This document shows, one piece after another, positions 3,860 to 27,372 of a stretch of DNA of 32,484 nucleotides. Source of the DNA: a virus (Duplodnaviria > Heunggongvirae > Uroviricota > Caudoviricetes). The notes below the pieces were generated by a model. That model did no database searches, was not told the DNA's origin, and saw only the letters and a program-made list of their open reading frames with translations. The stretch is taken from the IMG/VR virus record IMGVR_UViG_2548876858_000013; one strand, given 5' to 3'. Every line of letters starts with the position of its first letter. The first letter of the stretch is position 1. Both the position numbers and the translations under genes were made by a program.

Positions 3860-6125
3860 AGCCTCCGGGCGTTTTGTCCCTCCGTCAGCATTTGCCGCAG
3901 GCACCGGTAAGGCGTTTACCGGTGCTTATGCATGGAACGCGCCACGCGAGGCTGTCGGGCGCGAAAGACCCCTTACACGTGACGAGATGCGTCAGGTGCA
4001 AGGTGTTTTATCCACGATTAACCGCCTGCCTTACTTTTTGCGCTCGCTGTTTACTTCACGCTATGATTACATCCGGCGCAATAAAAGCCCGGTGCACGGG
4101 TTTTATTTCCTCACAGCCACTTTTCAGCGTCGTTTATGGCCGCGCATTGAGCGCGTGAATCAGCGCCATGAAATGAACACCGACGCGTCGTTACTGTTTC
4201 TGGCAGAGCGTGACCACTATGCGCGCCTGCCGGGAATGAATGACAAGGAGCTGAAAAAATTTGCCGCCCGTATCTCATCGCAGCTTTTCATGATGTATGA
4301 GGAACTCTGCGATGCCTGGGTGGATGCCCATGGCGAAAAAGAATCGCTGTTTACGGATGAGGCGCAGGCTCACCTGTATGGTCATGTTGCTGGCGCTGCA
4401 CGTGTTTTCAATATTTCCCCGCTCTACTGGAAAAAATACCGTAAAGGACAGATGACCACGAGGCAGGCATATTCTGCCATTGCCCGCCTGTTTAACGATG
4501 AGTGGTGGACTCATCAGCTTAAAGGCCAGCGTATGCGCTGGCATGAGGCGTTACTGATTGCTGTCGGGGAGGTCAATAAAGACCGTTCTCCTTATGCCAG
4601 TAAACATGCCATTCGTGATGTGCGTGCACGCCGCCAGGCAAATCTGGAATTTCTTAAATCGTGTGACCTTGAAAACAGGGAAACCGGCGAGCGCATCGAC
4701 CTTATCAGTAAGGTGATGGGCAGTATTTCTAATCCTGAAATTCGCCGGATGGAGCTGATGAACACCATTGCCGGTATTGAGCGTTACGCCGCAGCAGAGG
4801 GTGATGTGGGGATGTTTATCACGCTGACCGCGCCGTCAAAGTATCACCCGACACGTCAGGTCGGAAAAGGCGAAAGTAAAACCGTCCAGCTAAATCACGG
4901 CTGGAACGATGAGGCATTTAATCCAAAGGATGCGCAGCGTTATCTCTGCCATATCTGGAGCCTGATGCGCACGGCATTCAAGGATAATGATTTACAGGTC
5001 TACGGTTTGCGTGTCGTCGAGCCACACCACGACGGAACGCCGCACTGGCATATGATGCTTTTTTGTAATCCGCGCCAGCGTAACCAGATTATCGAAATCA
5101 TGCGTCGCTATGCGCTCAAAGAGGATGGCGACGAAAGAGGAGCCGCGCGAAACCGTTTTCAGGCAAAACACCTTAATCGGGGCGGTGCTGCGGGGTATAT
5201 CGCGAAATACATCTCAAAAAACATCGACGGCTATGCACTGGATGGTCAGCTCGATAACGATACCGGCAGGCCGCTGAAAGATACTGCTGCGGCTGTTACC
5301 GCATGGGCGTCAACGTGGCGCATTCCGCAATTTAAAACGGTTGGTCTGCCGACAATGGGGGCTTACCGTGAACTACGCAAATTGCCTCGCGGTGTCAGCA
5401 TTGCTGATGAGTTTGACGAGCGCGTCGAGGCTGCACGCGCCGCTGCAGACAGTGGTGATTTTGCGTTGTATATCAGCGCGCAGGGCGGGGCAAATGTCCC
5501 GCGCGATTGTCAGACTGTCAGGGTCGCCCGTAGCCCGTCGGATGACGTTAACGAGTACGAGGAAGAAGTCGAGAGAGTGGTCGGCATTTACGCGCCGCAT
5601 CTCGGCGCGCGTCATATTCATATCACCAGAACGACGGACTGGCGCATTGTGCCGAAAGTTCCGGTCGTTGAGCCTTTGACTTTAAAAAGCGGCATCGCCG
5701 CGCCTCGGAGTCCTGTCAATAACTGTGGAAAGCTCACCGGTGGTGATACTTCGTTACCGGCTCCCACACCTTCTGAGCACGCCGCAGCAGTGCTTAATCT
5801 GGTTGATGACGGTGTTATTGAATGGAATGAACCGGAGGTCGTGAGGGCGCTCAGGGGCGCATTAAAACACGACCTGCGAACGCCAAACCGTCAGCAAAGA
5901 AACGGAAGCCCGTTAAAACCACATGAAATTGCACCATCGGCCAGACTGACCCGGTCGGAAAGAATGCAAATTACCCGTATCCGCGTTGACCTTGCTCAGA
6001 ACGGTATCAGGCCGCAGCGATGGGAGCTTGAGGCGCTGGCGCGTGGCGCGACCGTAAATTATTACGGGAAATCTTTCAATTATCAGGTCGCTGATGAGTG
6101 GCCTGGATTTTTGTTACCCATTTGA
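3849..6125 (+). CDS. A: Rolling-circle replication initiation endonuclease (P2 gpA-like)
   Basis: Long ORF 3807..6125; start may be the ATG at 3849 (MAVKASG...) or 3807. Contains an HUH-like motif (PHWHMMLF, about 5038-5060) and a paired-tyrosine motif (GYIAKYISK, about 5195-5220) characteristic of phiX174/P2-type Rep proteins; P2 gene A position. Confidence 0.85.
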   Translation: MAVKASGRFVPPSAFAAGTGKAFTGAYAWNAPREAVGRERPLTRDEMRQVQGVLSTINRLPYFLRSLFTSRYDYIRRNKSPVHGFYFLTATFQRRLWPRIERVNQRHEMNTDASLLFLAERDHYARLPGMNDKELKKFAARISSQLFMMYEELCDAWVDAHGEKESLFTDEAQAHLYGHVAGAARVFNISPLYWKKYRKGQMTTRQAYSAIARLFNDEWWTHQLKGQRMRWHEALLIAVGEVNKDRSPYASKHAIRDVRARRQANLEFLKSCDLENRETGERIDLISKVMGSISNPEIRRMELMNTIAGIERYAAAEGDVGMFITLTAPSKYHPTRQVGKGESKTVQLNHGWNDEAFNPKDAQRYLCHIWSLMRTAFKDNDLQVYGLRVVEPHHDGTPHWHMMLFCNPRQRNQIIEIMRRYALKEDGDERGAARNRFQAKHLNRGGAAGYIAKYISKNIDGYALDGQLDNDTGRPLKDTAAAVTAWASTWRIPQFKTVGLPTMGAYRELRKLPRGVSIADEFDERVEAARAAADSGDFALYISAQGGANVPRDCQTVRVARSPSDDVNEYEEEVERVVGIYAPHLGARHIHITRTTDWRIVPKVPVVEPLTLKSGIAAPRSPVNNCGKLTGGDTSLPAPTPSEHAAAVLNLVDDGVIEWNEPEVVRALRGALKHDLRTPNRQQRNGSPLKPHEIAPSARLTRSERMQITRIRVDLAQNGIRPQRWELEALARGATVNYYGKSFNYQVADEWPGFLLPI

Positions 6126-6385
6126 GTAAAAATGCAGCGTGATTTTATATGCCTTTGAATGGATTATGCGAAGCGCCTCTAAGGCAGATGAGGAGCAATA
6201 GCATGCTGAAGTAGAAGGCTAAATTGTATTGAATCGCTAGCATGTAATTTAAGGCAGCTATTTGATTCGAGTCATAAAAGAGCATCTATTTCGGCTAATA
6301 AAACCATTGCGAGTGACCTTTTGTCGAAGCATAATTCATCTCGAGCGAAGTCTTGCTAGTCTTTCATCGGAATGATGACAGGCGC

Positions 6386-6415
6386 AAAAAAACCACCCTG
6401 GCAGGTGGTTTTTTT
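6386..6415. terminator. Bidirectional intrinsic terminator-like hairpin
   Basis: AAAAAAACCACC / loop CTGGCA / GGTGGTTTTTTT: an A-tract and T-tract flanking a GC stem; 13 nt downstream of the minus-strand small ORF stop and about 260 nt downstream of gene A. Confidence 0.6.
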
Positions 6416-6427
6416 GTTTGAAGCATA

Positions 6428-6541
6428 CTAAAGAATAATACTTACATGGATATTACTGACGTTTACTGACAAACCACTTGGACTACCATATGGATAGCCA
6501 AAGAGGGCCAGAACGAGAATGCAGTAATAGCACTTCTTCAT
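6428..6541 (-). CDS. Small hydrophobic protein (37 aa), candidate small membrane peptide
   Basis: Minus-strand ORF MKKCYYCILVLALFGYPYGSPSGLSVNVSNIHVSIIL, translated by hand. Near-consensus RBS GGAGGAGAT immediately upstream of the ATG and a hairpin terminator just downstream. Below the 60-aa cut-off of the ORF track. Confidence 0.4.
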   Translation of the reverse strand: MKKCYYCILVLALFGYPYGSPSGLSVNVSNIHVSIIL

Positions 6542-7112
6542 ATCTCCTCCTGTAAGCAGAGGGCAATTTCCGCCGATATATGCGCTTCTGAGGCGGAGTT
6601 ACTATTTAGCGAAGTCTTGCCCTGAAATAATGCTCTGTTTAAACGCAAAGTGATCTGGCATATCACCGAACAGAGAGCCTGAACAACACAACATATAGTA
6701 TGTCGTTGTTTCTGGTTGCATTTTATGTTGTGTAATACTGGTTTTGCATCAAGGATGTTTGAGCTTTTTTTGATATAGCTCAAAGTAAAAAGCAGGGACT
6801 ACGGATGATAAGGTATTGAAAGCAATGTAAATTTTTTAAAGTTATTGGTGGCTAAAAAATGCACGGTTTCAATATGGCGGACTTAAATAAGCAATTAAAA
6901 AAGTCATAAATATCACTAAAATCATGGTGTTACGTTTTTTTGTGGGAGCTGCGGTGACGCTTAAGTTGATTTGTCATTAAATAAGCCGTGCATGCAACAA
7001 GTGAATGTTTTTGCATGCGTCGGGGATGCCCGTTCCAGCTGCTCGCGGTCAGAGCTGGTGCGGATCCATAGTATCTATGCAACTGCATTAAAACCGCCAC
7101 ATGAAGCGGGCG

Positions 7113-7131
7113 GGCGAGGCGGGGAAAGCAC
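7113..7131. other. cos site (P2-type 19-nt cohesive end GGCGAGGCGGGGAAAGCAC)
   Basis: Exact 19-mer that I recall as the P2 cohesive end and start of the P2 genome, followed here by TGCGCGCT as I recall for P2; sits in a GC-rich patch within otherwise AT-rich DNA between A and Q. Confidence 0.65.
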
Positions 7132-7355
7132 TGCGCGCTCCATTAACGACCATTACATAATACTATTAGCCTATGAATCGAGTCATGAGATGTTATCTTT
7201 ACGATTCAGGCGAGTGCTTTCGTTACGATGAGTTAGTTTAAGCACACTATCTGCACAAAAAATAATCTGTTGAAGCGATTCATCATTCCTAACGCTCTAG
7301 AGTCTTAAATAAAAATATGTAAAATGCGTAAAATTTTCTGAATTATGGATCAGCT

Positions 7356-8438
7356 ATGCTTGGAACTTCATCACAAAGAGCTATTTCAGTACAACATGTT
7401 GATTTAAATGTAAAGTGTTGGGTCGTTAGACCTGGGATTAAGTATAGATATTTTGCAGACTTCCTTGAACGCAATATGGTTGCTACTGCTCACTTGGATA
7501 GGTTAAGTCCAGATCAAATTGACTTTAATGATGAAATTAACCATGAAAATATTAATCAAAAGGTTGATGGGTTAGATACTATTGGTTCAAGAAATATTCA
7601 TACCCAAATTGAAAATTTCCTCATAGATATGCAGGTCGGTGATGTTGTTTTCACTTTGTCAGGTGATATGGTTGTTCCTGGAGTTATTGCATCTTCCGCG
7701 TATTTTGAGCGTGAATGTTTAGGTAATAATGAAGGGTTTCATGTAAGACGTAGAGTCACATGGGGAGAGCCAGTTCGCAGACGAGAGATTCCATTAGCTC
7801 TTCAGAAATCGTTTACTGCATACCAGACCGTATTCTCTTTGGGCGGGAAGTCAGAAGAAGTACTGCATTGGTTAATGTCATTCTTTATAACGGATAATAT
7901 TTTCTGTACTAGCTTAAGAGTCGAGCAAGCAGAAGCCATTCGGCATCATACTCTTAAGCAGCTGGCTGAGCTGGTCGATAGAGTGCAGGTACTTGCGCTA
8001 TTAATTGGCGAAGAGTTTGATGGCGAGTATACAAACGAAGTTGTTCAGTTTGAGATGGAAAGACTTTCTAATAATGGAGAGTTATCCTTGACTGCTCAAC
8101 AAATGTTGATGTCTCCGGGGGATGTTTGGCTACAATTTAAAACAAATAATAGAAAGGCCGGAATTGCGTTTATGTTAATTATGGGGGCCATTTTTAATCA
8201 TGATGTAGCCTTCGCTTCAACGGTTGATAATCGTATAAGTGAGGAACTTCGATCTCATATTGAAGGGAAAAAAGAGGTTGCAATGGATGGATTAAACTTT
8301 GATAGAGTTTCTCAAGTTCTAGAGTTGCGTTTAAAAAGACAAAATAGAGGCTTTGTTTCTGCTCGTCCAACGAACCGTGAGATCGGACAGGGGATCAATT
8401 TCCCTGAAGATGGTGATGCGAGGCATGCGAGTGACTAA
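7356..8438 (+). CDS. Hypothetical cargo protein, 360 aa, soluble; first gene of a two-gene operon
   Basis: Long ORF in AT-rich DNA; weak RBS (GGAT), so the true start could be downstream. No nucleotidyltransferase GS..DxD motif and no clear HEPN or PD-(D/E)xK motif seen by eye. Confidence 0.7.
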   Translation: MLGTSSQRAISVQHVDLNVKCWVVRPGIKYRYFADFLERNMVATAHLDRLSPDQIDFNDEINHENINQKVDGLDTIGSRNIHTQIENFLIDMQVGDVVFTLSGDMVVPGVIASSAYFERECLGNNEGFHVRRRVTWGEPVRRREIPLALQKSFTAYQTVFSLGGKSEEVLHWLMSFFITDNIFCTSLRVEQAEAIRHHTLKQLAELVDRVQVLALLIGEEFDGEYTNEVVQFEMERLSNNGELSLTAQQMLMSPGDVWLQFKTNNRKAGIAFMLIMGAIFNHDVAFASTVDNRISEELRSHIEGKKEVAMDGLNFDRVSQVLELRLKRQNRGFVSARPTNREIGQGINFPEDGDARHASD

Positions 8439-8440
8439 CT

Positions 8441-9130
8441 ATGAACTTTGAATTTGTAAAAGAACACTGGCTGATAATAGGCATGCTATTCATAGCATGT
8501 CTATTATTAATTTTAAAATTCAAAGATATTTACAGAACACACGATCAGTTTAATAACGTCGTGATGTCATTGTGCGCTGTTTTGACACTTGTGTGGGGAG
8601 GATATACTTTTGATGTTTTGCACCAAAGGGATAAGGCAGAAGCTGATCTTATAGAGTTAAGAAATAGAATTAGAAATACAGAATCGACATTTTTTAATGT
8701 TGACGTTAATGTTGTTAAAATCGATGATGTGTTTTATATAAAGCCTATTGTGACTATTAGGAATAACAGTAATGAGCGAATTTATGTGAAGCTTAATAAC
8801 AAGTCCCTTGCTGTTAGTCGTGTTTTATCGGCCGGTGCAAAGCAAGTCGCTACGGAAGTTTTTTATCCAAATTATTATGAGGAGTTGGCTGTTCTTAATG
8901 AAGAAAGTAGCTCGCAAGGAAAAGCTAAAAATATACCTTTATATGACATATCCGTTCCTATCTCTGCTGAAAGACGCTTGAACTATCTTGTTTCGACAAA
9001 AGAAAAAGGAATGTATTATGTAACATTTAGTGCTGAGGCAATGAACGAAGATGGCTCGCCTGTTTCTAAATACATAAATGGGAAAAAATCTATATGGTTT
9101 TCTTCTTCATATATTGAAGTTAAAGATTGA
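8441..9130 (+). CDS. Hypothetical cargo membrane protein, 229 aa, two N-terminal TM helices plus a beta-rich-looking soluble domain
   Basis: ATG 2 nt after the upstream stop (TAACTATG). Hydrophobic segments WLIIGMLFIACLLLIL and VVMSLCAVLTLVWGGYTF; the remainder is rich in alternating hydrophobic/polar stretches. AT-rich. Confidence 0.7.
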   Translation: MNFEFVKEHWLIIGMLFIACLLLILKFKDIYRTHDQFNNVVMSLCAVLTLVWGGYTFDVLHQRDKAEADLIELRNRIRNTESTFFNVDVNVVKIDDVFYIKPIVTIRNNSNERIYVKLNNKSLAVSRVLSAGAKQVATEVFYPNYYEELAVLNEESSSQGKAKNIPLYDISVPISAERRLNYLVSTKEKGMYYVTFSAEAMNEDGSPVSKYINGKKSIWFSSSYIEVKD

Positions 9131-18297: not shown

Positions 18298-19083
18298 TTA
18301 TGAGTGGTTTTTATTTGATGCTTTGTATTCTAAAACCTTCTTATTGGCGTAAAGGAATTTTGTATATGACAGGAATATAAGCAGACCTGAAATGAAATAG
18401 GTTAGGGATATTATTAATAATGTTTTTCTGTGGCTGTTATTATCTTTAATCTCCTGACTTAACCATTCGGAGTCCTCCTTGTTTAGCTGTAAGAGCTTAT
18501 TGCAGGCGATCTCGGGAAGTGTGTCTTTTATAAATACGTTTTGCAGACTCTTGCAATCGGCAAGGCTATAAGTTTTATTAAATTCAACCGTTTTATTTTT
18601 GAAGGATAAAAGAACTTTGTCACTATAAACATAGTACATCATATTTTTATATGGTATACCTATGGCATCCCTTACTATAGCGGATTGTTCATTGTGTATA
18701 TAACATGCGAAGAGAATATAAATAATACTGGCCAGAATTACAATTATTGTTTTAATTATGTGTGGTGGTTTTGTTATGTCACCCCAGATGCGAGTAAGGA
18801 AAAAATACGATGTTTTTAGTTTTCCATCAATCAGTCCCTGCTGTATCATTCTCACATTTTCAATGCCTGATACATTGATTCCGTTAATTATTTTAAATAG
18901 TTGAATGTCGCGCCACTCGCGGTCAAGTCTTTTTAATTTTTTGTCTGAATATCCAAAATTGAAATAATGTGCAATAAGCCTCATAAGGTTACTTTTACCA
19001 AAGCTAAAAAATGCTAATACTGCAAAGCTACAAAGGAAAAAAACGATTAGCCCCCACACATTAGTCACATTATAGCTGACCAT
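18298..19083 (-). CDS. Hypothetical cargo membrane protein, 261 aa, three predicted TM helices
   Basis: Strong RBS (AAGGAG six nt upstream of the ATG at 19081-19083); very AT-rich; hydrophobic segments near the N-terminus (VWGLIVFFLCSFAVLAFFSF), middle (IIKTIIVILASIIYILFACYI) and C-terminus (LLIISLTYFISGLLIFLSY). Sits at the S-V variable locus. Confidence 0.75.
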   Translation of the reverse strand: MVSYNVTNVWGLIVFFLCSFAVLAFFSFGKSNLMRLIAHYFNFGYSDKKLKRLDREWRDIQLFKIINGINVSGIENVRMIQQGLIDGKLKTSYFFLTRIWGDITKPPHIIKTIIVILASIIYILFACYIHNEQSAIVRDAIGIPYKNMMYYVYSDKVLLSFKNKTVEFNKTYSLADCKSLQNVFIKDTLPEIACNKLLQLNKEDSEWLSQEIKDNNSHRKTLLIISLTYFISGLLIFLSYTKFLYANKKVLEYKASNKNHS

Positions 19084-19166
19084 TACGCTCTCCTTGAATG
19101 TTGTCTGGTAGTTCTACAAATGAATCCAGATAGCATAACTTTTATATATTGTGCAATCTCACATGC
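19084..19166. promoter_or_regulatory. Probable late promoter region upstream of V, shared with the divergent cargo gene
   Basis: Position-based inference; 83-bp AT-rich divergent intergenic region. Confidence 0.3.
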
Positions 19167-19802
19167 ATGAACACTCTCGCAAATATTCAGGAACTCGCGC
19201 GCGCACTGCGCAACATGATTCGCACCGGCATTATCGTCGAAACCGACCTTAACGCCGGTCGCTGCCGCGTGCAGACCGGCGGCATGTGCACCGACTGGCT
19301 TCAGTGGCTGACCCATCGCGCCGGGCGTTCGCGCACATGGTGGGCACCTTCCGTGGGGGAACAGGTGCTGATTCTGGCCGTGGGTGGTGAACTCGACACG
19401 GCGTTCGTTCTGCCGGGGATTTATTCCGGCGATAACCCCGCGCCGTCTGCGTCGGCGGATGCCCTGCATATCCGTTTCCCTGACGGGGCGGTGATTGAGT
19501 ATGAACCTGAAACCAGCGCGCTCACGGTAAGCGGAGTTAAAACGGCCAGCGTGACGGCTTCTGATTCTGTTACTGCCACGGTGCCGGTGGTCATGGTGAA
19601 AGCATCAACCCGCATCACCCTGGACACACCGGAGGTGGTCTGCACCAACAGGCTGATTACCGGCACGCTGGAAGTGCAGAAGGGCGGGACGATGCGCGGC
19701 AACATTGAACACACCGGCGGTGAGCTCTCATCAAACGGTAAGGTACTGCATACCCATAAACACCCCGGCGACAGCGGCGGCACAACCGGGGGACCTCTAT
19801 GA
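19167..19802 (+). CDS. V: Baseplate assembly/spike protein (P2 gpV-like)
   Basis: ATG at 19167 gives 211 aa (recalled P2 gpV length); the ORF track start at 19149 is a TTG. Confidence 0.85.
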   Translation: MNTLANIQELARALRNMIRTGIIVETDLNAGRCRVQTGGMCTDWLQWLTHRAGRSRTWWAPSVGEQVLILAVGGELDTAFVLPGIYSGDNPAPSASADALHIRFPDGAVIEYEPETSALTVSGVKTASVTASDSVTATVPVVMVKASTRITLDTPEVVCTNRLITGTLEVQKGGTMRGNIEHTGGELSSNGKVLHTHKHPGDSGGTTGGPL

Positions 19803-24537: not shown

Positions 24538-25236
24538 TTATATTTTTCCATGCTTTTCACCGTCAAATCGAATCATGCTAGGATCAAGAAAATAAATCAA
24601 ATCAATTAACGCATGTTGTATTCTGATTAGCCTTTCTTTATAAGGCTCGATATTTTTTGTCATATTTATCACTTCATTGTTTAAATCTAAAAAAAATGGT
24701 TCATTGACAAAGCAATTTTCCTTTGTGAAACCGCCGTAACCTATGCAATCAAATCCAGCATCTGTTGATATCAACATCTTTTCCGCAATAGCTCTCTGCT
24801 CTCCTATGAAAAACATAAAATACTGACCAAAGGCGTCTGTTTGGATTAATGAGTTAATATTGTTCTGTAATCTAATAAACTCCCTCATTTTTTTATTTTT
24901 TTCTAGACTAAGGTATTGAATGTCTATGCGGGCAGCTTCTGTCCATGCAAAGAACTGGGAAAAAAGAAAAACCGTATTTTTGATAACATAATCTTGTTGG
25001 CGCTTACTCCCATTATGATAAAACTCTTCAATAAACCCTAATTCTAATATGTTATAAATGCGGCTTTGTAAGTCTGAAGCTGAGCGAATTAACGGTTCAA
25101 TATAGTACTGATGTTTTCTCCTTACATCCAGTGTTTCATTGAGCTTGTTTATTCTATTCTGATTATAGGTAGATATAGCAATAGAGATTATAGATATTGC
25201 ACCACCAATAAGGCTTGAAATTAATGCCACACTCAT
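24538..25236 (-). CDS. Hypothetical cargo protein, 232 aa, N-terminal TM helix plus soluble domain
   Basis: RBS AAGGA seven nt upstream of the ATG at 25234-25236; very AT-rich; N-terminal hydrophobic segment VALISSLIGGAISIISIAISTY; at the G-FI variable locus. Confidence 0.7.
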   Translation of the reverse strand: MSVALISSLIGGAISIISIAISTYNQNRINKLNETLDVRRKHQYYIEPLIRSASDLQSRIYNILELGFIEEFYHNGSKRQQDYVIKNTVFLFSQFFAWTEAARIDIQYLSLEKNKKMREFIRLQNNINSLIQTDAFGQYFMFFIGEQRAIAEKMLISTDAGFDCIGYGGFTKENCFVNEPFFLDLNNEVINMTKNIEPYKERLIRIQHALIDLIYFLDPSMIRFDGEKHGKI

Positions 25237-26181: not shown

Positions 26182-27372
26182 ATGAGTGACTATCATCACG
26201 GCGTGCAGGTGCTGGAGATTAACGACGGCACCCGCGTCATTTCCACTGTATCCACGGCCATTGTCGGCATGGTCTGCACGGCCAGCGATGCGGATGCGGA
26301 AATCTTCCCCCTCAATAAACCGGTGCTGATTACCAATGTGCAGAGCGCAATTGCAAAGGCCGGTAAAAAAGGCACGCTGGCGGCATCGTTGCAGGCTATC
26401 GCCGACCAGTCAAAACCGGTCACCGTTGTTGTGCGCGTGGAAGACGGCACCGGCGACGACGAAGAAACGAAACTCGCGCAGACCGTTTCCAATATCATCG
26501 GCACCACCGACGAAAACGGTCAGTACACCGGACTGAAAGCCCTGATGGGGGCGGAGTCGGTTACCGGCGTTAAACCACGCATTCTCGGCGTACCGGGGCT
26601 GGACACCAAAGAGGTTGCCGTCGCACTGGCATCGGTATGCCAGGAACTGAATGCATTCGGGTATATCAGCGCATGGGGCTGTAAAACCATTTCCGAGGCA
26701 AAAGCCTACCGTCAGAATTTCAGCCAGCGTGAGCTGATGGTCATCTGGCCGGATTTCCTCGCATGGGATACGGTTACCAGTACCACCGCCACCGCGTATG
26801 CCACCGCCCGTGCGCTGGGTCTGCGCGCTAAAATCGACCAGGAGCAGGGCTGGCATAAAACGCTGTCCAACGTCGGGGTGAACGGTGTTACCGGCATCAG
26901 TGCATCCGTCTTCTGGGATTTGCAGAAGCCCGGCACTGATGCTGACCTGCTTAACGAGTCAGGCGTCACTACGCTGATTCGCCGCGACGGTTTCCGCTTC
27001 TGGGGTAACCGTACCTGCTCTGATGATCCGCTGTTCCTCTTTGAAAGTTACACCCGCACCGCGCAGGTACTGGCCGACACGATGGCTGAGGCGCACATGT
27101 GGGCTATTGATAAGCCCATCACCGCAACGCTGATTCGCGACATCATTGACGGCATCAATGCCAAATTCCGTGAACTGAAAAACAACGGTTATATCGTGGA
27201 TGGCACATGCTGGTTCAGCGAAGAATCCAACGATGCGGAAACCCTCAAGGCCGGCAAACTGTATATCGACTACGACTATACACCGGTGCCTCCTCTTGAA
27301 AATCTGACCCTGCGCCAGCGTATTACTTCCAGATACCTGGCAAGTCTGGTCACTTCGGTTAACAGCAATTAA
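26182..27372 (+). CDS. FI: Tail sheath protein (P2 gpFI-like)
   Basis: 396 aa, recalled P2 FI length. Confidence 0.9.
   Translation: MSDYHHGVQVLEINDGTRVISTVSTAIVGMVCTASDADAEIFPLNKPVLITNVQSAIAKAGKKGTLAASLQAIADQSKPVTVVVRVEDGTGDDEETKLAQTVSNIIGTTDENGQYTGLKALMGAESVTGVKPRILGVPGLDTKEVAVALASVCQELNAFGYISAWGCKTISEAKAYRQNFSQRELMVIWPDFLAWDTVTSTTATAYATARALGLRAKIDQEQGWHKTLSNVGVNGVTGISASVFWDLQKPGTDADLLNESGVTTLIRRDGFRFWGNRTCSDDPLFLFESYTRTAQVLADTMAEAHMWAIDKPITATLIRDIIDGINAKFRELKNNGYIVDGTCWFSEESNDAETLKAGKLYIDYDYTPVPPLENLTLRQRITSRYLASLVTSVNSN

Follow-up and report, generated by a model that had tools for sequence, protein, structure and literature searches.

The DNA analysed here is a stretch of 32,484 nucleotides (nt), IMG/VR virus record IMGVR_UViG_2548876858_000013, referred to below as the window. 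It is a P2-family (Peduovirus) prophage with the integrase at its left end. Between about positions 6300 and 6760 it carries a compact unit of ~450 nt, which probably represents an apparently undescribed family of type I toxin-antitoxin-like two-RNA modules found on mobile elements. A minus-strand gene for a hydrophobic protein of 37 amino acids (aa) faces a plus-strand gene for a predicted small RNA (sRNA), and the two share a terminator. Comparison with related sequences reveals a conserved coding sequence (CDS); promoter, terminator, repeats and leader hairpins which are conserved and co-vary; and a unit which is itself mobile. From these patterns we infer the two transcripts and their ends, repression by pairing, toxicity of the protein and a biological role. 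The features of the module are as follows.

6541-6428, minus strand: small-protein gene, 37 codons plus TAG; product MKKCYYCILVLALFGYPYGSPSGLSVNVSNIHVSIIL
6546-6550, minus strand: Shine-Dalgarno (SD) sequence GGAGG, 4 nt to the ATG; GGAGG, GGTGG or GGAG in all subfamilies
6712-6752, minus strand: putative mRNA promoter region, with block TTGATGCAAA (6752-6743) and -10 TAAAAT (6725-6720); presumed start ~6712
6633-6675, minus strand: leader hairpin SL2, from RNAalifold; outer helix CUCUGU/ACAGAG, inner helix GUGAU/AUCAC, loop AUGCCAG
6608-6621, minus strand: repeat copy 1 (G-GCAAGACTTCGCT), predicted sRNA target in the mRNA leader, ending 65 nt upstream of the AUG
6569-6597, minus strand: leader hairpin SL3 (UCCGCC...GGCGGA), from RNAalifold, between the sRNA target and the SD sequence
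6385-6416, both strands: bidirectional intrinsic terminator A7-CCACC-UGCCAG-GGUGG-U7, ending the mRNA (minus) and the predicted sRNA (plus)
6307-6335, plus strand: predicted sRNA promoter, from the promoter scan; -35 TTGCGA (6307-6312), 17-nt spacer, -10 CATAAT (6330-6335)
6343-6415, plus strand: predicted ~73-nt sRNA, the putative antitoxin; 5' pairing region, variable middle hairpin, terminator hairpin (loop CUGGCA)
6344-6356, minus strand: repeat copy 2 (GCAAGACTTCGCT); on the plus strand its transcript is the predicted sRNA 5' end, GAGCGAAGUCUUGC (6343-6356)

The 37-codon gene

The 37-codon open reading frame (ORF) can be regarded with high confidence as a real, conserved coding sequence under purifying selection. 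The comparative set comprises 63 loci with 21 unique CDS of 37-39 codons. Among them the ORF is retained at ~70-75% nucleotide identity with the positions of start, SD and stop held. Length differences within it are whole codons only (37, 38 or 39), and frame-breaking insertions and deletions (indels) are confined to the flanks, where they measure 1-5 nt. Within the 37-aa and 39-aa groups the ratio of nonsynonymous to synonymous substitution (dN/dS) in the ORF frame is 0.37 and 0.30 respectively, and comparisons between subfamilies give 0.18-0.38; the two remaining sense frames reach 1.2-1.7 in the 37-aa group and 0.64 and 1.58 in the 39-aa group, which is small. Variable columns are most frequent at codon position 3 and least frequent at position 2 (18/11/28 and 20/5/23 by codon position).

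An earlier sequence-only reading of the window had picked out this ORF and its translation, together with a ribosome binding site (RBS) immediately 5' of the ATG. Both are present as described; the RBS, GGAGGAGAT (6550-6542), directly abuts the ATG, and the 4-nt spacing between GGAGG and ATG is short but usable. The reading also held that such a combination of signals is unlikely for a spurious ORF, which does not stand up: GGAGG-N3-8-ATG occurs 7 times in the window where 4.7 occurrences are expected, and 18 of 100 shuffled sequences do as well. The ORF is judged to be genuine because it is conserved and not because of its signals, and the conservation, whose absence from related prophages was to count against the reading, extends well beyond prophages. 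The description "unannotated" is correct for the Prokaryotic Genome Annotation Pipeline (PGAP), which leaves the ORF blank in all 152 of the 152 E. coli carriers, but not for GenBank and UniProt, which list the exact peptide as a 'hypothetical protein' from ~750 to >1,000 contigs (for example ECW_m2278 in E. coli W, and WFG40939.1).

Other frames in the region were rejected. An upstream 39-aa ORF (6721-6602) and an 81-aa ORF with a TTG start are dismissed as genes because indels break their frames in plasmid copies. The 88-aa ORFs found in databases are an artefact of one P2 sub-lineage, in which an in-frame stop upstream of the SD has been lost. This sub-lineage comprises L002 and ~16 IMG/VR loci (e.g. 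L072), with proteins P0015-P0018. The loss of the stop leads gene callers to report an 88-aa (or 97-aa) 'hypothetical protein', only the last 37 residues of which are the real product, and this misleads protein clustering.

The predicted partner RNA and its target

Confidence is also high that the locus encodes a predicted partner RNA which co-evolves with the gene. The sRNA promoter is found in each of the 34 unique modules. When the subfamilies are aligned, repeat copy 2 and TTGCGA-N17-CATAAT are the only blocks beyond the terminator which stand out as conserved. Ten subfamily representatives share an identical -10 (mean pairwise identity 1.00), whereas the same measure gives 0.79 in the -35 and 0.50 in the spacer; within the predicted sRNA, the pairing region averages 0.87, the middle 0.58 and the terminator 1.00. 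The distance from the -10 to the pairing region is constant at 7 nt, and the predicted fold of the sRNA has a z-score of -4.1. An antisense RNA across 6428-6600, for which the sequence-only reading had suggested a search, is not what the locus appears to hold: the predicted partner is convergent, at ~6343-6415 on the plus strand, and targets the leader at 6608-6621.

Additional conserved plus-strand blocks are found 5' of the sRNA promoter in all subfamilies (6262-6300; TTGATTC...GTCATAAAAG, ~45-75 nt upstream of the -35). They may serve as an UP element or as a binding site for a regulator. An AATAAA block lies just upstream of the -35.

The 5' end of the predicted sRNA, which is expected to be free and single-stranded, is complementary to the mRNA leader. 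In every subfamily the predicted duplex of 15-18 nt starts at sRNA nucleotide 1-2, and in 8/8 representatives a distance of 63-66 nt separates the end of the target from the AUG downstream of it, so that the target is far upstream of the RBS. Fifteen distinct combinations of copy 1 and copy 2 occur, each of which predicts a duplex of 15-18 nt. The two copies co-vary: both read GCAAGACTTCGCT in the P2 and Klebsiella types and both read GTAAGGCTTTGCT in the Salmonella types, and GGTAAGGCTTTGCTCA is present in both copies of Salmonella-type modules. All six of the internal differences between copies leave G.U wobbles. The Salmonella-type sRNA is predicted to pair with Salmonella-type leaders at -32 to -42 kcal/mol, versus -14 to -26 kcal/mol with P2- and Klebsiella-type leaders.

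Direct repeats around a mobile cassette are a common footprint, and in the window the two copies share 13 identical nt. The 13-18-nt repeats might for this reason be read as DNA sites, either binding sites for a single protein or recombination scars of cassette insertion, and not as regions of RNA pairing. Their placement argues otherwise. A conserved -10 always precedes copy 2 by exactly 7 nt, and copy 2 coincides with the predicted 5' end of the RNA; copy 1 lies at a fixed distance from the AUG; and the differences between copies are only of the kind compatible with G.U pairing. Nor do the repeats bound the unit, since conserved promoter blocks lie outside them. The probability left for DNA sites is slight.

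The shared terminator

The hairpin with a U-tract which had been described 13 nt after the stop codon exists (6416-6385), but it begins 11-12 nt after the stop, and it is not the gene's own terminator. The structure is symmetrical (A7-stem-U7) and hence works on both strands. It has a predicted stability of -19.1 kcal/mol and is 100% identical in all family members. Pairing between the A-tract and the U-tract kept it from being called in a terminator scan.

The terminator alone is not diagnostic of the family, as it is also present in RNA I genes of the ColE1 type. The 26-nt sequence AAAAACCACCTGCCAGGGTGGTTTTT is identical at the end of RNA I in some ColE1-type plasmids (metagenome loci L103-L219, e.g. 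L111, L106 and L168), and in the same plasmids the stem-loop before the terminator likewise has a CUGCCAGG loop. When the terminator was used to look for family members in metagenomes, about half of the matches turned out to be RNA I regions of the ColE1 type and not members.

This identity raises the question of whether the module is a pure RNA device, for instance an antisense pair with a relationship to the RNA I/RNA II of ColE1 copy-number control, or another regulatory RNA, in which the ORF is incidental and untranslated. The RNA I genes concerned have UGCCAG loops too, Rfam RNAI (RF00106) gives a weak match of 26.2 bits, and among close relatives the flanking non-coding parts are conserved as much as the ORF. 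The match is, however, restricted to the terminator and falls below the gathering threshold of 47 bits; it is explained by the terminator shared with some ColE1-type plasmids. Outside the terminator, what was matched (6428-6494) belongs to the 3' portion of the ORF, and, unlike in ColE1, there is no origin of replication here. In Rfam searches at gathering and permissive thresholds nothing real was found, the RNAI and Phe-leader matches both being driven by the terminator. No replication gene adjoins the module in its prophage contexts. The frame-specific substitutions, the restriction of length changes to whole codons and the retention of SD, ATG and stop at ~70% nucleotide identity are those of a translated gene, and an RNA device is considered very improbable.

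The mRNA leader

The predicted mRNA is ~327 nt long (about 6712 to 6386), with a leader of ~170 nt. The blocks of its putative promoter are conserved in all subfamilies. The leader hairpins are conserved by compensatory change. The two helices of SL2 have paired fractions of 97.5% and 100%, and in 6 of their pairs both partners have changed; SL3 has the compensatory variants CCACC/GGUGG, UCCUUCAG/CUGAAGGA and UCCGUCAC/GUGUCGGA. When SL2 and SL3 are imposed as an explicit structure, 88.7% of cells are paired, versus 38-48% when the partners are slid. There are 10 double-changed pairs versus 1-4 in these slid controls, and none of 500 shuffles matches the observed covariation. The SL2 loop sequence UGCCA is invariant in 20/20 sequences while the stems co-vary. 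It is the sequence of the mRNA terminator loop, and it is complementary to the sRNA terminator loop CUGGCA. Sequestration of the SD by a common anti-SD helix, sought in folds of the full mRNA, was inconsistent between subfamilies and is not relied on.

Distribution and mobility

In the window the gene for the replication endonuclease gpA lies on the plus strand and ends at 6125; portal, terminase, capsid and tail genes come after it. At 7113-7131 lies the sequence GGCGAGGCGGGGAAAGCAC, which we take to be the P2 cohesive end (a P2-type cos site), and some linear phage records terminate exactly at the equivalent of window position 7112, in agreement with this assignment. The small-protein locus is placed, on account of this cos position, in the interval from gpA to cos. 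Phage P2 carries tin and old in the gpA-cos-gpQ region, which is a documented hotspot of accessory and defence genes (PMC9122126). The ~60 nt at cos (7077-7139) are the sole part of the spacer between gpA and the cargo which is common to P2-like prophages, across many other genera. In a search anchored on gpA the module was absent from 60 P2-like loci of other species, which have the cos segment alone in common with the window; it is therefore cargo and not phage core.

The ~240 nt around the ORF are found at 90-100% identity in 152 of 5,426 complete E. coli genomes (about 3%). The same region is present in ~390 mostly conjugative Klebsiella IncFIB/IncFII plasmids (PLSDB), at ~75% identity over its whole length; in the plasmid copy a frame of exactly 37 codons is retained along with its SD, ATG and stop, and indels of 1-5 nt occur in the flanks. 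Salmonella and Citrobacter IncF plasmids were matched via the terminator only and carry a far more divergent homologue of 39 codons. Further ORF variants come from IMG/VR and metagenome contigs. A word-indexed protein search, run with three padding residues (in-frame upstream codons), gave only two close matches. An exhaustive HMMER scan added two more subfamilies, which adjoin secretin, Zot and DUF2523 genes; because of these neighbours, the members concerned are assigned to filamentous (inovirus-type) prophages. They are divergent (37 and 38 aa; L220 3001-3114, L221 1009-1125 and L222 68-184) and have the full set of RNA features. On this sequence evidence, the whole unit moves among P2-type prophages, IncF plasmids and inovirus-type prophages. 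Carriage by three unrelated kinds of mobile element, together with absence from the 60 P2-like loci, fits an addiction or abortive-infection module.

The distribution also bears on another explanation of the locus, which is that the ORF arose by chance in AT-rich recombination junk of the P2 hotspot and that the hairpin merely terminates the early operon (gpA). The hotspot is known to contain recombination remnants (PMC13586616), gpA on the plus strand ends 260 nt before the hairpin, and the SD-ATG pattern is, as stated above, no rarer than chance. Yet the unit is conserved, with its coding signature, on plasmids and in filamentous prophages which have no gpA, and there is covariation both in the leader hairpins and between the repeat copies. 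The comparative data already contradict a chance origin, which is extremely unlikely.

Two arrangements seen among the carriers may be mentioned. One metagenome contig (L217) has two variants of the module, with peptides beginning MNRWCLC... and MNRVCLC...; such duplication is common for type I loci. Plasmid pJ53-KPC_Vir carries, ~1.1 kb from a Klebsiella-type module and amid insertion sequence (IS) elements, a gene which bears the annotation type I toxin DinQ (L065 5346-5483); this may be a cluster of small toxin modules.

The peptide

The consensus of the family is M-[KNR]-[KR]-x2-3-C-[IL]-[LIF]-[VLI]-L-[ATV]-L-[FLIV]-G-Y-P-x-G-S-[PQ]-S-G-[WL]-S-V-x-V-S-x-I-x-V-x-I-x-L. The peptide has a basic N-terminus and a hydrophobic core of ~11-14 residues (residues 4-17), with a grand average of hydropathy (GRAVY) of 0.5-0.9. 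A helix-breaking segment rich in Gly, Pro and Ser (GYP/GSxS) ends the core. The C-terminal half consists of ~15 uncharged residues in which polar and hydrophobic positions alternate strictly; in the Salmonella type it has an aromatic ending, ...QFY or ...QVF. Signal-like features can be recognised by eye: a basic n-region, an h-region of 11-14 residues, GYP, and small residues at S-x-S. Judged from its sequence, the peptide resembles a signal peptide followed by an amphipathic strand more than it does a classical type I toxin. Scans of Pfam and NCBIfam with three peptide variants gave zero matches at E<=10.

Relationship to known systems

Of the features which define type I systems, the module displays two in silico: a hydrophobic protein of <60 aa from a genuine ORF, and a complementary predicted RNA from the same locus. 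The other two, toxicity of the overproduced protein and an RNA which represses its translation or destabilises its mRNA, are predicted for it. Its layout is most readily compared with par of the Enterococcus faecalis plasmid pAD1, which encodes Fst (Fst/Ldr superfamily). The par locus has convergent promoters, a bidirectional terminator with complementary loops, and direct repeats which are read in opposite directions; the leader of its toxin mRNA is structured, and a loop-loop contact starts the pairing which the repeats then complete (PMC7472228). The present module likewise has convergent promoters, a shared bidirectional terminator and two complementary transcribed loops, and its oppositely transcribed direct repeats (6608-6620 and 6344-6356, in all subfamilies) would form a second pairing region. 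Also common to both are a structured leader on the toxin mRNA, a (predicted) toxin of ~33-37 aa, and carriage by plasmids and phages. The two differ in that there is one repeat pair here where par has DRa and DRb; the predicted pairing is 63-66 nt upstream of the AUG and not over the initiation region; the sRNA is ~73 nt, not ~40; and the hosts are Gram-negative. The peptide itself, unlike Fst/Ldr, has neither a PXXXG-type motif nor a charged tail, and has no match to that superfamily in Pfam or NCBIfam at E<=10.

TimP/TimR, of the ryfA locus in Salmonella and E. coli, offers a different likeness. TimP is of similar size (38-41 aa) with an N-terminal, signal-like hydrophobic segment, and TimR binds timP mRNA >60 nt upstream of the RBS (PMC7667032), much as the predicted sRNA target here lies far upstream (63-66 nt from the AUG). 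TimP of K-12 (L223 1502-1627) and the present family have in common an N-terminus M-K-x-x-C-x-C-I-x-L(-x) and a later S-x-S-G. The arrangement is not the same: the TimR gene is divergent and upstream, whereas the sRNA gene here is convergent and downstream, with a shared terminator, and TimP belongs to the chromosomal core whereas the module is on mobile elements. Homology is rejected statistically despite the N-terminal resemblance by eye. Membership is not supported because the curated TimP model NF040796, on which K-12 TimP scores 86.8 bits, does not match any of three family peptides at E<=10, hhalign gives a probability of 11% and BLASTP no alignment between TimP and the family. The module also lacks a match to Rfam ryfA (RF00126), even at E<=10. 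Very remote common ancestry, or convergence between signal-like segments, could account for the resemblance.

TisB/IstR-1, ZorO/OrzO, DinQ/AgrB and ShoB/OhsC are enterobacterial type I systems with trans-acting sRNAs encoded at the same locus. Like the present module, they have ~15-20 nt of complementarity in a long, structured 5' untranslated region, away from the RBS, and a small hydrophobic protein; their loci can be duplicated (compare the two module copies on L217). Unlike it, they have divergent sRNA genes, no shared terminator, and toxins which are single alpha-helical transmembrane segments. Hok/Sok, of plasmid R1 and its relatives, stabilises enterobacterial plasmids and prophages; its toxin mRNA is highly structured and long-lived, whereas its antisense RNA is small and unstable. 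It differs from the module in that Sok overlaps the mok/hok leader (true cis-antisense), and that Hok is ~50 aa and has the overlapping mok frame. No sequence match to TisB, ZorO, DinQ or ShoB was found for the family in the Pfam and NCBIfam scans, and none to Hok_Gef in Pfam. The four sRNA-controlled systems are also listed in PMC7667032. The Pas sRNAs, which are lambdoid, were considered and are unrelated to the module.

No account of the family came to light when the literature was searched by peptide, nucleotide motif, accession and concept, within a coverage which was partial and leaves room for an earlier one. Two studies of the P2 hotspot (PMC9122126, PMC13586616) do not mention the module.

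Proposed mechanism

A mechanism in which a kissing contact is followed by duplex formation is proposed because the layout resembles that of par/Fst and the far-upstream target resembles those of TimR/timP and IstR-1/tisB. IstR-1/tisB is, alongside TimR/timP, a precedent for repression from a distant target. A minus-strand mRNA of ~330 nt with a structured leader would encode the 37-aa hydrophobic protein, and a convergent plus-strand promoter beyond the shared terminator would yield the ~73-nt sRNA. The terminator loop of the sRNA (CUGGCA) would kiss the loop of SL2, the terminator loop of the mRNA, or both, and this contact would start the interaction. The 5' tail of the sRNA (15-18 nt) would then form an extended duplex with the single-stranded stretch of the leader, which might block translation at a distance, by interfering with a standby site or with leader structure, and/or trigger cleavage of the mRNA. 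Once an unstable sRNA is no longer made, as after loss of the plasmid or prophage, the protein would be produced and would harm the cell envelope. The outcome would be a stabilised mobile element or an aborted phage infection. That the predicted partner RNA represses the 37-aa gene is held with moderate confidence. That the 37-aa protein is toxic is argued by analogy, with less confidence.

Several points weigh against this interpretation. The sequence-only reading had likened the product to type I toxin peptides; purifying selection and a co-varying partner RNA make this the best-supported view of it, but a short hydrophobic core and an uncharged C-terminus, with no charged tail, are atypical of such toxins. 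AlphaFold, run on the single sequence, returned only a low-confidence helical hairpin (predicted local distance difference test score, pLDDT, 70), which is uninformative. The ends of both RNAs are deduced from promoter and terminator positions. The putative mRNA promoter is weak or unclear: the promoter scan is silent there, and the assignment of a -35 is uncertain, since 21 nt separate the -10 from the best -35-like sequence, TTGATG. As the sequences are phylogenetically related, the covariation counts run higher than the independent events behind them; the six G.U-compatible differences between repeat copies, for example, go back to only about three independent wobble events. Part of the conservation of the terminator may have other causes, given that it is shared with ColE1-type RNA I genes. 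Finally, predicted SD sequestration is inconsistent between subfamilies and so offers no common route from pairing to repression.

The same peptide features are central to an alternative in which the gene is regulated but its small product is not toxic. The peptide would reside in the membrane or be exported, where it might modulate an envelope protein, exclude superinfecting phages or act as a signal, and the RNA would simply tune its expression. All of the RNA evidence fits this equally well; the peptide looks like a signal peptide with a 15-residue amphipathic strand rather than a pore-forming helix; and TimP at native levels permits growth (PMC7667032). On the other hand, the module is found only on mobile elements, of three unrelated kinds, and has a par-type layout, both of which are typical of addiction and abortive-infection systems, and tight RNA control at two sites would be unusual for a harmless product. 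A non-toxic peptide is accordingly thought unlikely, though it is to be taken seriously.

A more specific version of the toxin-antitoxin interpretation can be put forward as an improbable speculation. The family would be the first Gram-negative type I family of the par type, and its toxin, acting in another way than the pore-forming helices usual in such systems, would combine an N-terminal Sec signal (~22 residues) with a C-terminal strand mimicking the beta-signal of outer-membrane proteins. Cleavage might occur after S-x-S, delivering an amphipathic beta-strand of ~15 residues (GLSVNVSNIHVSIIL) to the periplasmic side. By mimicking the beta-signal, the strand would disturb the assembly of outer-membrane proteins or the sensing of envelope stress. 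If so, prophages, plasmids and inoviruses would have gained an envelope-directed weapon for addiction or abortive infection.

If the toxin-antitoxin interpretation is confirmed, the few type I systems listed for enterobacteria will be joined by a new family. The par-type layout, descriptions of which have so far come from Gram-positive bacteria (PMC7472228), would then exist in Enterobacteria as well, and there would be a second signal-peptide-like small toxin, after TimP, which is controlled from far upstream of the RBS. The family is widespread on clinically important elements (the ~390 Klebsiella plasmids, and P2-type prophages in ~3% of complete E. coli genomes) and is overlooked entirely by standard annotation. 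A role in plasmid stabilisation or phage defence, if true, would be relevant to the persistence of resistance plasmids. The sequence variants of the P2/Klebsiella and Salmonella types are natural specificity mutants for the RNA-RNA mechanism.

Other accessory loci in the window

A two-gene cargo is located between cos and the portal gene (7356-9130, plus strand). Its 360-aa protein, which has no Pfam domain, matches the PADLOC candidate defence family PDC-S02 (E 2.4e-12); its 229-aa protein has a hydrophobic N-terminal segment and a weak match to DUF4131. The cargo at this site differs in other module-bearing prophages; E24377A, for example, has an AAA ATPase. Two minus-strand ORFs with overlapping ends (18298-19469; 261 and 128 aa) break the plus-strand block of late genes. 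They match neither Pfam nor PADLOC and may be additional accessory cargo. Between the tail-fibre genes and the gene for the tail sheath at 26182 there is a further minus-strand ORF of 232 aa (24538-25236), without a Pfam match. It occupies the position of the Z/fun accessory locus of P2 and gives a weak match to PADLOC RTasTM of the DRT systems (E 1e-6).

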